DNA from: a virus
Lineage: Duplodnaviria > Heunggongvirae > Uroviricota > Caudoviricetes
Virus record (IMG/VR): IMGVR_UViG_2582580966_000018
Reading direction: 5' to 3' (one strand)
Length of the DNA stretch: 18,422 nucleotides
Positions 1-7,685 of this stretch are shown piece after piece; position 1 is the stretch's first letter, and every line of letters starts with the position of its first letter. Under the pieces are notes generated by a model. That model did no database searches, had not been told where the DNA came from, and worked only from the letters and a program-made list of their open reading frames with translations. Position numbers and translations under genes: made by a program.

Positions 1-399
1 TCACTTCAGCGGGTAGTCATCAAACTCACCAGTCCGCGCGTCATTGATGATGTACGTCACCACCCCCTTCACTACGACTCGTTCCTCACAATCGTCGTCA
101 GTTATCCATGTCTTTTTATCAGCGTGGTCCAGTTCTTCCAGGTGCACCTTTGGCAGCAGCCTGAGACGCAACAGCCGTATCTGGTCATTCAGATGACAAA
201 TCACCAGGCTTCCGTCTACCGGAGTCAGCGATGTGTCCATGACCAGCAGAGCACCTCTCTTGATTCCTTCCCGCCATGATGTAGCAGCGTAACGGATGAA
301 GAATGTCGCCGCTGGTTTTCGTATCAACTCCTTGTCGAGTGAGATCGCATCCTCGTGGTAATCAGCAGCAGGGCTGGGAAACTGTGACATGGCAACCAT
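1..399 (-). CDS. UmuD'-like protein (S24 LexA/UmuD peptidase fold), 132 aa
   Basis: Translation aligns by eye with E. coli UmuD from the FPSPAADY motif onward; the Ser of the catalytic dyad is conserved (TSW vs GDSM). GAGG Shine-Dalgarno 6 nt upstream of ATG at 399. Window starts at its stop codon, so any downstream umuC-like partner is outside the window. Confidence 0.6.
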   Translation of the reverse strand: MVAMSQFPSPAADYHEDAISLDKELIRKPAATFFIRYAATSWREGIKRGALLVMDTSLTPVDGSLVICHLNDQIRLLRLRLLPKVHLEELDHADKKTWITDDDCEERVVVKGVVTYIINDARTGEFDDYPLK

Positions 400-444: not shown

Positions 445-488
445 GATTTTGATCGTTGCAACCGATCGATTTGAAGATTTTGATCGTT
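445..488. repeat. Two perfect 13-bp direct repeats (GATTTTGATCGTT) 31 bp apart, with three GATC sites (451, 464, 482)
   Basis: Read directly: repeat copies at 445-457 and 476-488, and a CGATCG palindrome between them at 463-468. Lies in the AT-rich divergent intergenic region upstream of the 579..1865 gene. Confidence 0.8.
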
Positions 489-1899: not shown

Positions 1900-2961
1900 A
1901 TGAACAATAAAATATTTTCCGTCCAGTATCTTCGTGGAATAGCAGCGCTACTTGTGGTGCTGTACCATTTTTCTTTTTTTACTCCGCGCTGGTTTGCTAA
2001 TTTATTTGCAAATGGCATGGTGGGCGTTGATATTTTTTTCATTATCTCTGGATTTATTATTTATTGGTCAACAATAAATCCTGAGGAATGCAGACCAACG
2101 GTATTTATTGTTAAACGATTCGCCAGAATATACCCGCTATTTTTTGTTGTGTTACTGGTTTCGTTGTTATTGCAACCTGCGCCTGCCACACAATTATCCA
2201 GGGGTTTTCTGGTTCTGCACAACGATTACACACTACCCGCTCCGGCGTTTGGATTTAATCTGCTACCGCCCGCGTGGACATTGACTTATGAAATATCGTT
2301 CTACGCTATTTTCTGTATGTGCGCTGCAATAACGACCCGGTATCGAGGTTCATTGTGTATCGCGCTGCTGATTGCAATCCCGGCAGTGCTACAGGTTGCG
2401 TTTAATGGAGGGTTGTCGTTTAACAGCACAGTCACCGCTATCCCTCCTGCTGACTCGCCGTTTTATGGTCTAATCAGGCTGGCAGGCTCAACGATGTTTT
2501 ATGAGTTTGCGTTTGGGATTATGTCTGGAATGATATTTGAAAGGTTTAAATTAATTCTTCCTAACTTAACTGCTATTACTATAGCAATATTCGCATCGGC
2601 TTTATTTTTCTATTTTTTCTTCACATTCTCAGACCATACCAGCGGTATAGAAGGAATGTTCTTTTTTGCTGCAATATTTTTTGTGGGCGTTTTGATGCTG
2701 GATAAATCAAAGGCGGGAGAGATAAAAGCATTATCAATTCTTGGCGACCTGACATATAGCATTTATCTCTGTCATTGGCTGGTAATGCAGATGGTACAGA
2801 AATTTATTCCGATTGGGGAGTATAAGCACTGGGGCGTCCTTGTCCCCTGCATGCTTGTTGCTTCTCTGATGATGGCATTCGCAGCTAACCGGATAATTGA
2901 AAAACCGTTTATCCGTCTGGCCCGTTCGGCGCTGAAACGCCAGGAGATTACGACGCGGTAG
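1900..2961 (+). CDS. Acyltransferase family 3 integral membrane protein (O-antigen/polysaccharide O-acetyltransferase-like)
   Basis: Strongly hydrophobic multi-helix protein with the N-terminal pattern typical of acyltransferase-3 / Oac-like enzymes (LRGIAALLVVLYHF...GVDIFFIISGF). ATG at 1900 preferred over the track's TTG at 1888. Sits 23 bp after the previous gene, suggesting co-transcription. Confidence 0.7.
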   Translation: MNNKIFSVQYLRGIAALLVVLYHFSFFTPRWFANLFANGMVGVDIFFIISGFIIYWSTINPEECRPTVFIVKRFARIYPLFFVVLLVSLLLQPAPATQLSRGFLVLHNDYTLPAPAFGFNLLPPAWTLTYEISFYAIFCMCAAITTRYRGSLCIALLIAIPAVLQVAFNGGLSFNSTVTAIPPADSPFYGLIRLAGSTMFYEFAFGIMSGMIFERFKLILPNLTAITIAIFASALFFYFFFTFSDHTSGIEGMFFFAAIFFVGVLMLDKSKAGEIKALSILGDLTYSIYLCHWLVMQMVQKFIPIGEYKHWGVLVPCMLVASLMMAFAANRIIEKPFIRLARSALKRQEITTR

Positions 2962-3412
2962 CAGGACGTGGCGGCCATTCAAGGCTGTCACTTAATATCG
3001 CTGCTTCATCATTAAACTTCATTTTCTTCAAGGCATCGATATGAGCAAGCCACTCTTTAAAGGTCGCCTTCTCTTCATCGGTGATGATCTCCAGAATGAG
3101 CTTAGAAGGCCAGTGTTCGCTGCTTATATATGCGTTAGCCGCAGAGATTAACGCATCTCTCTTTGACTCGGCCTGTGCCAGTTTAAGCGCGAACAGTTCT
3201 TCTTTAGTTGGCTCGGGAATTTTTTCCCACGCAGGCATGCCGTCTGGCCCTGCAACCCTTCGCATGCCGTCTTTAACTGTTGGGTAAAATTCGGCGAAAA
3301 CACCCATATCAACCGGCACAGCATCACTGTATTCGTCCGTCTTTAACAGAGAGCTTTCCTTGAAAACAAAAGCGTTGCTTTTGGCACTATATAAAAAATC
3401 TGAATCAGACAT
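2948..3412 (-). CDS. tfa: Tail fibre assembly protein (Tfa family chaperone)
   Basis: C-terminal TDEEKA...W...EWPPRP pattern and N-terminal region resemble lambda Tfa / TfaE. Start codon overlaps the stop of the upstream tail-fibre fragment (TAATG). Converges on and overlaps the acyltransferase 3' end by 14 bp. Confidence 0.75.
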   Translation of the reverse strand: MSDSDFLYSAKSNAFVFKESSLLKTDEYSDAVPVDMGVFAEFYPTVKDGMRRVAGPDGMPAWEKIPEPTKEELFALKLAQAESKRDALISAANAYISSEHWPSKLILEIITDEEKATFKEWLAHIDALKKMKFNDEAAILSDSLEWPPRPATAS

Positions 3413-3847
3413 TACGCTCTCCCGATAGCAATCCAGTTAAAAACTGTTGGCTGCGCAGTAAAGTTGTGGTCGGACGAACTCCAGGTTGCAGAACGAACAT
3501 TAAAGCTCCCTGCGTTAACCTTTTCGGCACCATACACGGTTAAGAGTTGATAGATACCGCCGGAGGCTGTCCATCCAGAGACATGGCCTTCTACTGCAAA
3601 TACCTGGTATGAGCTCATCGCCACACCCATATTCACATTATAAAATCCGTTACTGTCCGTTGTACCTACATCCATCTGGATGATCATATTGCCAGGAAGG
3701 CGAATAACCACACCAGACCCGGTTGTTGTATAGGTAAAGGATGACATATCCGGAACTTGCCCGGTAGCCGGTATAAATCACACACTCTCCGACATACACA
3801 TCATCCGGATGGGCAAACAGCTCTTGTTTGTCTGTGAGCTCTGCCAT
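3412..3847 (-). pseudogene. Side tail fibre C-terminal fragment, frameshifted near 3772-3780
   Basis: Two overlapping minus-strand ORFs (3650..3847 and 3412..3747) in different frames. Reading across the junction gives one continuous ~145-aa product (…YVGECV | IPATGQVPDMSSFTYTTTGSG…). GGAG 3 nt upstream of ATG at 3847. Positioned directly upstream of tfa, as a tail-fibre distal domain would be. Confidence 0.45.
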
Positions 3848-6570: not shown

Positions 6571-6723
6571 CTACCGGATATCCCACAGGTGAGCTGTGTA
6601 ATTGAAGGTTTTTACGTCAGATTCTTTTGGGATTGGCTTGCGTTTATTTCTGGAGCGTTTCGTTGGAAGGTATTTGCAGTTTTCGCAGATGATGTCGGTG
6701 AAACTTCGTCGCTGTCGCCTCAT
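6571..6723 (-). CDS. ninE: NinE
   Basis: [23 protein letters not shown]… matches lambda NinE. AGGAGG 6 nt upstream of ATG at 6723; ATGA overlap with the stop of the methyltransferase gene. Confidence 0.75.
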
Positions 6724-7248
6724 GCCGCCCTCCTGACGCCCTGCCCGATCGCCATCAATGCCGCTTTGGATACGGTAGTAAACATCCGTCGAGGACTGAT
6801 GAACGGTCGCCAAATCAGCAGCATGGAGCCTTTGCTGTTTCCCTTCTTCTCCAGCCCTGTCGATGGTTCGATAAAATTAATCCGTCCATCAGTGATAATG
6901 CGAACTTCGTCGACACTCTCCAGAGCCTTGCTGAACCATCCGACTGACATATCCTCTGGCACAAGCATAACTACCGTCTGTCGCTGTTGTATGCACTGCT
7001 CAGCGGCTTTTTCCACCCACGGCCTGATATTGCTGTACGGTGGGTTATTCCAGATTGCACCGTGGCTTATCCACTCAGAATTTAGCGCGTCGTCGGCCTC
7101 AGTTAACCAGTGAGCGCACAGAGCATTTTTTGTCGCTCGCTGCCGAATCCAGCCAGAATCCAAACTCAATATCCAGTGCATCAAAAAGCCAAAGCGGCGT
7201 TTGCCAGCAGTCCTTGTCGTGTGCTGGCGTATTTGATTTGATAGTCAT
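6720..7248 (-). pseudogene. Phage N6-adenine DNA methyltransferase (Dam-like, NPPY motif), frameshifted in an A6 run
   Basis: N-terminal part (MTIKSNTPAHDKDCWQTPLWLFDALDIEFGFWLDSAASDK) and C-terminal part (NALCAHWLTEADD…WNNPPYS…) lie in two frames. The shift maps to the T6 run at plus 7126-7131; removing one base restores a continuous ~175-aa reading frame. ATGA overlap with ninB stop. Confidence 0.7.
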
Positions 7249-7685
7249 GCAGCCCGATCTCCCCATCGCGCTTTCCATTCGAGAGCCAGTCGCGCTTCGT
7301 CTGACCACTTAACGCCACGCTCTGTACCGAATGCCTGTATAAGCTCTAATAGCTCCGCAAATTCGTTTACACGCATCCTGCTGGTTGACTGGCCTATTAC
7401 CACAAAGCCATTCCCGGCAAGGTTAGGAACAACATCCTGCTGCTTTAATGCTGCGGTAAACACACACTTCCAGCTTTCTGCATCCAGCCAGCGACCATGC
7501 CATTCAACCTGACGAGAGACGTCACCAAGGCAAGCCCAAAGCTTTCGATTCTGGTCTAAGCTGCGGTTGCGTTCCTGAATGGTTACTACGATTGGTTTGG
7601 TTGGGTCTGGAAGAATTTGCTGTACCGCGTGAATAGCGTTTTGCTGATGTGCTGGAGATCGAATTTCAAAGGTTAGTTTTTTCAT
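7245..7685 (-). CDS. ninB: NinB recombination protein
   Basis: From MKKLTFEIRSPAHQQNAIHAVQQILPDPTKP… the product is near-identical to lambda NinB as I recall it. Confidence 0.9.
   Translation of the reverse strand: MKKLTFEIRSPAHQQNAIHAVQQILPDPTKPIVVTIQERNRSLDQNRKLWACLGDVSRQVEWHGRWLDAESWKCVFTAALKQQDVVPNLAGNGFVVIGQSTSRMRVNEFAELLELIQAFGTERGVKWSDEARLALEWKARWGDRAA

Follow-up and report, generated by a model that had tools for sequence, protein, structure and literature searches.

The GATC-bearing repeats at positions 445-488 of the window (the whole 18,422-nt stretch of phage DNA analysed here) are best explained, with reasonable likelihood, as part of an OxyR/Dam switch for the prophage cargo operon located downstream; this reading draws on the sequence and on analogy with characterised switches. 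The stretch 449-498 is quite probably an OxyR site sensitive to Dam methylation. That it also makes the cargo operon phase-variable is considered slightly better than an even chance. OxyR would most likely be the partner protein. The Dam-dependent phase-variation switch that had been proposed for this DNA in an earlier note is supported by the presence of two putative OxyR half-sites at the spacing of reduced OxyR, by the recurrence of the same cassette in other prophages and by a profile match to agn43, Mu mom and gtr.

Structure of the repeats

The following repeat copies were located upstream of the cargo operon.

445-457, + strand: first copy of the direct repeat, GATTTTGATCGTT; contains GATC1 (451-454) as well as the left arm of predicted half-site 1
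476-488, + strand: second copy of the direct repeat, GATTTTGATCGTT; contains GATC3 (482-485) as well as the left arm of predicted half-site 2

Sequence reading and a repeat search confirmed the two perfect 13-bp repeats with a GATC each, and the third GATC in a CGATCG palindrome between them, as described in the earlier note. GATTTTGATCGTT was the sole direct-repeat family in the region 380-620, where it occurs as two perfect 13-mers lying 31 bp apart from start to start. Letters 441-500 of the window read catgGATTTTGATCGTTgcaaccgatcgatttgaaGATTTTGATCGTTatttcccataac. The three GATC sites start at 451, 464 and 482, which gives spacings of 13 and 18 bp, and the middle one is part of CGATCG at 463-468. 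No fourth GATC was present within 100 bp on the + side.

When the window was simulated 1000 times with a first-order Markov model, 5 of the simulations contained an exact 13-mer direct repeat with its copies 13-50 bp apart. The 17-mer GATCG-N7-CGATC, which spans the first two GATC sites, was present in 5 of 500 simulations. Taken alone, three GATCs within 35 bp are not rare: because 129 of 500 simulations contained such a cluster, with about 75 GATCs per simulated window vs 49 in the real one, the argument from GATC density is weak by itself. The non-random feature of 445-488 is its structure, not mere GATC density. GATC was also found to be depleted over the whole window (49 vs 75 +/- 8 in dinucleotide-preserving shuffles, every shuffle containing at least 49), which makes the local triplet more striking than the simulations suggest.

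Predicted OxyR half-sites

A scan for OxyR half-sites near the repeats had been suggested in the earlier note. It was done with the half-site consensus of Broadbent et al. (PMC2909390), applied in the symmetric 15-bp form ATAGnTnnnAnCTAT, and two half-sites overlapping the repeats were found.

451-467: GATCG-N7-CGATC 17-mer, reading GATCG-TTGCAAC-CGATC; predicted OxyR half-site 1, flanked by GATC1 and GATC2
483-497 (element 482-497): predicted OxyR half-site 2, ATCGtTattTcCCAT / ATCGTTATTTCCCAT; 7/10 vs ATAGnTnnnAnCTAT; opened by GATC3

Half-site 1 proper covers 452-466 (ATCGtTgcaAcCGAT / ATCGTTGCAACCGAT) and agrees with the consensus at 8 of 10 positions, both mismatches being those that create the GATCs. 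Half-site 2 begins 31 bp after half-site 1, and the two form the only pair in the window with both scores of at least 7 at a spacing of 31-32 bp. One OxyR tetramer takes half-sites spaced 22 bp, or about 32 bp when OxyR is reduced, and the latter spacing is the one reported for gtr (PMC2909390) and opvAB (PMC4856963). When a third half-site was sought 31-32 bp to either side (420-421 and 514-515), scores of 2-5/10 only were obtained. A further OxyR-like half-site, devoid of GATC (ATAGTGAGCAATTTT, 7/10), is present at 504-518, 21 bp past half-site 2; it overlaps the putative -35 region and could be an alternative OxyR position. The AT-rich surroundings of 504-518 also score 6-7/10.

Read against the consensus, each 13-bp repeat appears to consist of the left arm of an OxyR-type half-site and a few bases upstream of it, and the CGATCG palindrome appears to be the right arm of half-site 1. 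The functional units would be the half-sites 452-466 and 483-497, rather than the 13-mers per se. The GATT part of the 13-mer is variable in the relatives described below.

A cassette family in other prophages

The exact element was found in 11 copies, namely six encoding contigs, three viral contigs, an 80-bp core in a further viral contig and the metagenome contig L162. Since all 11 copies are identical over the stretch examined, they give no conservation signal at the locus itself. Assemblies GCA_049343005.1 and GCA_028635825.1 are examples of strains with the element. The intergenic DNA had no match in 5,426 complete E. coli genomes, and a comparison with the phage collection gave nothing past the humD/LexA-box part. 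Because the locus lacks a comparative signal of its own, the architecture was searched instead.

The pattern GATCGNTNNNANCGATC-N14-GATCG was detected in at least 120 viral contigs, vs a handful estimated by chance. The half-site-2 positions left free by this pattern (T6, A10, C12, A14 and T15) fit the OxyR consensus. Among the matches listed, 25 non-redundant low-GC copies carried T6 in 21, A10 in 23, C12 in 21, A14 in 22 and T15 in 21 cases, while the same positions looked random in 11 high-GC chance matches. With a stricter 22-base pattern, 25 species genomes were recovered vs about 0.07 expected by our own arithmetic. All but one are Enterobacterales (24/25; Enterobacter, Citrobacter, Pectobacterium, Rahnella, Buttiauxella, Erwinia, Pantoea, Serratia, Leminorella, Mixta and others). 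The 25th match, on a 526-bp contig (L145) filed under the actinobacterium Kocuria sabuli, bears an enterobacterial P2-type cassette and flank and is probably an assembly contamination.

The cassette family was defined by GATCG-N7-CGATC, N14, GATCGnTnnnAnC[CAT]AT, with an envelope gene on the + strand starting about 70-79 nt past GATC3. In the window, the sequence motif is matched save for a T at position 10 of half-site 2, where A10 is near-invariant in the family, and the cargo is of an envelope type. The best -10 (+45 vs +39 in the family, counted from GATC3) and the GTG start codon (97 nt vs about 74 nt from GATC3) depart from the family pattern.

An nhmmer profile was built from 37 representative copies, leaving out the window and the known systems. 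It aligned the element as follows.

449-498, + strand: full cassette as aligned by the family profile (nhmmer, 31.1 bits, E = 1.1e-8)

The remaining sub-threshold matches of the profile in the window were weaker, minus-strand or partial, and fell on the same 449-498 stretch. The same profile matched the agn43 site from end to end (27.8 bits, minus strand, spacer longer by one base), and it recovered Mu mom (20.5 bits, minus strand) and half-sites A and C of P22 gtr. Because the profile matches both the window and the agn43, mom and gtr sites, the element belongs to a recurrent family whose consensus is that of a proven OxyR/Dam site.

In independent families the + strand gene has its start codon 70-79 nt after GATC3. 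The genes at this distance code for a 120-aa lipoprotein, P2-like membrane peptides of about 40 aa, a 30-aa peptide beside humD, and GT25 LPS glycosyltransferases; a GT4 glycosyltransferase and a pertactin-like autotransporter are found downstream of the cassette at larger distances. The relatives show a -35-like hexamer at +15/16 and a -10-like one at about +39 from GATC3, and their half-site centres lie near -74 and -43. Among lipoprotein homologues fetched by protein similarity alone, 56 of the 69 distinct upstream regions show three GATCs in this layout, and more diverged homologues have unrelated upstream regions without the cassette. For this reason the cassette is regarded as modular.

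Several copies deserve separate mention, among them those beside small membrane peptides (L050 at 3260-3480; L022, L116, L144, L147 and L157). In P2-like prophages, the cassette lies between the tail-sheath gene and a single-pass membrane peptide of about 40 aa, which is followed by a terminator. These P2-like peptides end in ECPYD or ECPYE. Other copies precede membrane peptides of 26-51 aa, some with acidic ends such as DDDY, and a Pfam search of the small cassette-linked membrane peptides returned no family. In phage HK639 (L012, NC_016158, 4362-4851), a distance of 21 nt separates the cassette from the start codon of the tail-fibre gene as annotated; the opposite flank of the cassette holds an unannotated ORF for a 120-aa lipoprotein, where the record has a small opposite-strand ORF. 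Late transcription into the HK639 tail-fibre gene would thus cross the predicted OxyR site. Upstream of two lipoprotein homologues the cassette is altered, by a change of GATC1 to GTTC (L179) or by a 4-nt spacer insertion before GATC3 (L215), and both are candidates for naturally locked switches.

To our knowledge the cassette family is undescribed. The literature searched, of which the coverage is incomplete and gives no proof of novelty, contained no description of it beyond agn43, mom, gtr and opvAB.

Comparison with known switches

The element is like agn43 in that a GATCG-N7-CGATC half-site and a second half-site starting with GATCG make up one putative OxyR tetramer site, which contains three GATCs in total. 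The counterpart of half-site 1 in agn43 (GATC-II/III) is GATCGTTTATATCGATC, the same 17-mer design, and the half-site spacing is 32 bp vs 31 bp in the window. The agn43 site covers the promoter and extends downstream of it, so that OxyR acts as a repressor, and the gene is on the half-site-1 side. Unlike agn43, the window and the prophage-cargo family have the gene beyond half-site 2 and the site apparently upstream of the promoter.

Mu mom is similar in being phage-borne near the tail-fibre region, with three GATCs at 13 and 18 bp and half-sites 31 bp apart. Its GATC2/3 half-site, GATCGGTAATACAGATC, has the same 17-mer design, and about 27 of 40 bases, as counted by eye, are equal to the reverse complement of the window element. 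The mom gene lies on the half-site-1 side, unlike the window cargo, and its product acts in DNA modification, not in surface modification. OxyR represses mom, which also requires the phage C activator. We know of no description of phase variation of Mu mom, and Bolker and Kahmann (1989) are reported to describe its control as de-repression that depends on Dam, not as phase variation.

The gtr operons of P22 and Salmonella (PMC2909390) are alike in their prophage-end niche after the tail genes, in O-antigen modification as cargo and in the reduced-OxyR-type spacing. Half-sites A (GATCGGTAACAACGATC) and C (GATCGCTTGTATCGATC) of P22 gtr follow the same GATCG-N7-CGATC design, and the gtr GATC pairs are 13 bp apart (-110/-97 and -46/-33; PMC2909390), the same distance as between GATC1 and GATC2 of the window. 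In gtr, however, there are three half-sites (A, B and C), the four GATCs form two pairs, and OxyR occupies either AB (ON) or BC (OFF) in alternation (PMC2909390). The window departs from this signature with two half-sites, three GATCs and no gtrA/gtrB genes, neither cargo ORF matching a GtrA- or GtrB-type family in Pfam. Acetylation of the O-antigen under Dam/OxyR phase variation is known from family 2 gtr (PMC5364305).

In opvAB of Salmonella, OxyR activates, and the promoter-proximal half-site is located directly upstream of the -35 (Cota et al., PMC4856963). The opvAB half-site OBSD, GATCGATATAACCAGT (PMC7708049), resembles half-site 2 of the window and of the family. The centres of OBSC and OBSD (-75 and -43) match the family geometry, while the putative promoter of the window is shifted by about 6 bp. 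opvAB has four half-sites (OBSA-OBSD), four GATCs and alternating occupancy; this four-half-site architecture was not found in the window, which matches an OBSC/OBSD-like pair only.

Two further architectures were rejected. The std switch depends on HdfR, with GATCs spaced 13 and 9 bp at about 220-240 bp upstream; in the window the spacings are 13 and 18 bp and the element lies within about 100 bp of the start codon. In pap, two GATCs lie 102 bp apart in Lrp sites and a PapI/PapB-type regulator is involved, and the GATC spacings of 13 and 18 bp led to rejection of a pap/Lrp architecture. From the likening to gtr, agn43 and pap made in the earlier note, the one-tetramer, three-GATC layout of agn43 (and of mom) was thus retained, but neither the gtr signature nor the pap/Lrp spacing was. 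The element seems to follow agn43 and mom in layout, the OBSC/OBSD pair of opvAB in placement and gtr in genomic niche.

The resemblance to mom gives some weight to an alternative in which 449-498 is a methylation-sensitive OxyR site without phase variation, serving as a sensor of Dam activity or replication state or as a setter of expression level. Mom has the same three-GATC, two-half-site layout and is described as a case of de-repression; half-site 2 of the window scores just 7/10 and is without A10. A gtr operon lacking one GATC loses phase variation and is uniformly ON (PMC5364305). This alternative is nevertheless rather unlikely, as agn43 has the same single-site design and does phase-vary, and as the cassette recurs before surface and envelope genes, which are typical targets of bet-hedging. 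Because the loss of one GATC ends phase variation in gtr, and because mom is controlled by Dam without it, bistability of the window element is put forward as a prediction only.

Prophage context and cargo genes

The OxyR/Dam switch proposed here would lie between the following features.

1-399, minus strand: humD, HumD-family (UmuD-like) S24 gene (NCBIfam equivalog, 171 bits); divergent, possible second target of the cassette
about 415-434: LexA box of humD, perfect, TACTGTATGTACATACAGT at 416-434; 16 nt from GATC1
579-1865, + strand: first cargo gene, 428 aa, GTG start; sub-threshold GH43/GH32 similarity and weak match to a PHROG 'tail protein' family
1888-2961, + strand: second cargo gene, Acyl_transf_3 O-acetyltransferase (Pfam PF01757, E = 4.6e-34; PHROG 3333 'O-acetyltransferase', E = 1e-56)
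2948-3412, minus strand: tail-fibre assembly protein
about 6720-7250, minus strand: PF05869 'Dam' adenine methyltransferase gene, with a 1-nt insertion in an A-run vs the intact gene of phage 434

The part of the window from 5117 onwards shares about 97% identity with the early and lysis region of phage 434/lambda, which it carries in reverse orientation. Other E. coli assemblies have the same module at one end of a prophage inserted beside dacD, where an intact tail fibre and Mu/P2-type baseplate genes come next. The flanking dacD-sbmC-yeeA-yeeX genes and the source names identify the host as E. coli, which has both dam and oxyR. The segment 2948-5515 of the window contains a 111-aa tail-fibre remnant (3412-3747), then KilA-N and lysis genes. 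Relatives L002, L003 and L006 have retained a complete tail fibre together with Mu/P2-type baseplate genes; in L004 and L005 the deletions are intermediate. The prophage of the window appears to be a deletion derivative. The humD gene is of the SOS-regulated, mutagenesis type and occupies the extreme end of the prophage, beside the attachment region; in the HK140 record, attP is annotated over the 3' end of the homologous humD. Its LexA box sits inside a 32-bp palindrome (409-440).

The two + strand genes are interpreted as lysogenic-conversion cargo because of their prophage-end niche near tail genes, their low GC and the O-acetyltransferase. The GC content is 35-45% in much of the cargo vs about 50% in the flanks. 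In P22, gtr occupies the same position between the tail genes and the attachment site. The gtr genes of SfV likewise lie between the tail genes and the attachment site. The earlier note had considered the downstream genes to fit the pattern of a surface-modification switch. This holds for 1888-2961, a phage O-acetyltransferase according to both Pfam and PHROG, but less so for 579-1865, which has the sub-threshold similarity to GH43/GH32 only.

Over 88% of its length, the protein of 579-1865 is 31% identical to the C-terminal portion of a Serratia 'phage tail protein' of 715 aa that has a tail-collar domain. Three close relatives were found among 5.8 billion proteins, one with just 86 nt upstream (L007) and another without a contig on record. 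No relative was found in species-representative genomes and viral contigs, and a metagenome scan gave an identical copy alone. The search with the acyltransferase returned identical copies only. No obvious signal peptide was seen in the 579-1865 protein, its AlphaFold model (pLDDT 44) was too poor for a structure search, and sequence searches of the PDB were empty. A tail-fibre segment inverting in the manner of the Mu G segment, with the GH43-like gene as alternative tip, was rejected: no flanking inverted repeats were found, and the acyltransferase takes the place of the alternative assembly gene.

L007 carries a 78%-identical cargo homologue, the first gene of which starts with ATG at the same codon, preceded by a different upstream region over the 86 nt available before the contig ends. 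Because L007 and the diverged lipoprotein homologues have other upstream regions, the cargo does not appear to need the cassette. The 86 nt of L007 (1-86) contain two GATCs in an inverted repeat with a 9-bp stem, GGAGATCAA...TTGATCTCC.

The earlier statement that a phage adenine methyltransferase gene on the same element is frameshifted was borne out by the comparison with phage 434. The ORF 6720-7184 spans profile positions 37-167 of the 169 in PF05869. A role of the phage-encoded Dam in the switch was rejected on account of the frameshift; as the methylation would be done by host Dam, the defective enzyme has no bearing on the mechanism. Intact relatives of the PF05869 gene are located in the nin region, and the lambdoid nin region is not expressed in lysogens.

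Promoter and regulated unit

A scan with consensus promoter sequences over 300-700 gave nothing on either strand. Two putative promoters are proposed for the cargo operon.

527-532, + strand: putative cargo -10, TATTAT (5/6), with a poor -35 and a predicted transcription start near 539
480-508, + strand: alternative putative promoter, TTGATC-17-AATAGT, weak, overlapping half-site 2

If the alternative at 480-508 were used, it would be covered by OxyR, which would make OxyR a repressor with a logic of the agn43 type. With the -10 at 527-532, the shift of both -10 and start codon would place OxyR about half a helical turn out of the register of the family.

Another alternative assigns the control, solely or additionally, to the divergent humD, where OxyR would occlude the promoter or block transcription; SOS-inducible humD would then be methylation-dependent as well. 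The regulated genes of agn43 and mom lie on the half-site-1 side, which is the humD side here. L060 and L020 have a diverged humD (49% aa identity) that keeps the LexA box, about 15 nt and the cassette. On the minus strand, a -35-like TTGCAA is present inside half-site 1 and a perfect TATAAT at 533-528. Against this stand the humD genes of HK639 and HK140, which have a LexA box and no adjacent cassette or GATC cluster, the small + strand ORF that also accompanies the L060 cassette at the canonical +76, and the lack of a consensus promoter on either strand. The family-wide constant partner is the + strand gene. Control of humD is therefore held to be unlikely. The constancy of the + strand gene, the HK639 and HK140 humD genes without adjacent cassette and the modularity of the cassette all point to the cargo operon, not humD, as the regulated unit.

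It is very improbable that the repeats bind another protein (Lrp, HdfR, a phage regulator or SeqA alone) or are a fortuitous duplication with incidental GATCs, for although GATC triplets are frequent in the simulations and the GATT of the 13-mer is unexplained by the OxyR consensus, the family keeps exactly the OxyR consensus positions and varies elsewhere, its profile recovers proven OxyR sites, pap and std differ in GATC spacing (and std in distance upstream), and the exact 13-mer repeat is rare in simulated windows.

Proposed mechanism

In the OxyR/Dam switch favoured here, 449-498 would be one OxyR tetramer site, with half-sites 452-466 and 483-497 lying 31 bp apart and Dam targets at the half-site edges (GATC at 451 and 464 for half-site 1, at 482 for half-site 2). 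By analogy with agn43, Mu mom, gtr and opvAB, OxyR would bind only when the GATCs are unmethylated, and bound OxyR would keep Dam away. Methylated sites would exclude OxyR, and Dam would re-methylate them after each replication. Two self-perpetuating states would result, and lysogens would split into ON and OFF lineages for the operon of 579-1865 and 1888-2961. Our best guess is that the OxyR-bound, unmethylated state is ON and the methylated state OFF, because in the relatives the site immediately precedes the promoter, its half-site centres lying near -74 and -43 like those of OBSC and OBSD in opvAB.

Significance

The window element is thus predicted to be an OxyR/Dam epigenetic switch with a new cargo, a weakly GH43-like protein together with an O-acetyltransferase. 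If this is true, lysogens of this E. coli prophage would be mixed populations in which the O-antigen (or another polysaccharide) is acetylated or not. Phage adsorption, serotyping and antibody recognition would be affected, as has been shown for Salmonella gtr and opvAB.

The spread of the cassette over prophage cargo in the Enterobacterales is a more interesting lead than the single locus. Its recurrence before envelope genes suggests that OxyR/Dam bistability may be general for phage lysogenic-conversion genes. It is conceivable, although this wider reading is tentative, that a portable cassette of about 47 bp precedes lysogenic-conversion genes of Enterobacterales temperate phages (lambdoid, P2-like and Mu/P2-type baseplate phages) and gives them heritable bistability under host Dam, a clone of lysogens thereby hedging its surface structure. 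Where the cassette lies beside humD, an SOS mutagenesis gene might likewise come to depend on the methylation state of the site. The search key GATCGnTnnnAnCGATC-N14-GATCGnTnnnAnCnAT may help to predict which prophage genes are phase-variable, and to make sense of GATCs found unmethylated in long-read methylomes.
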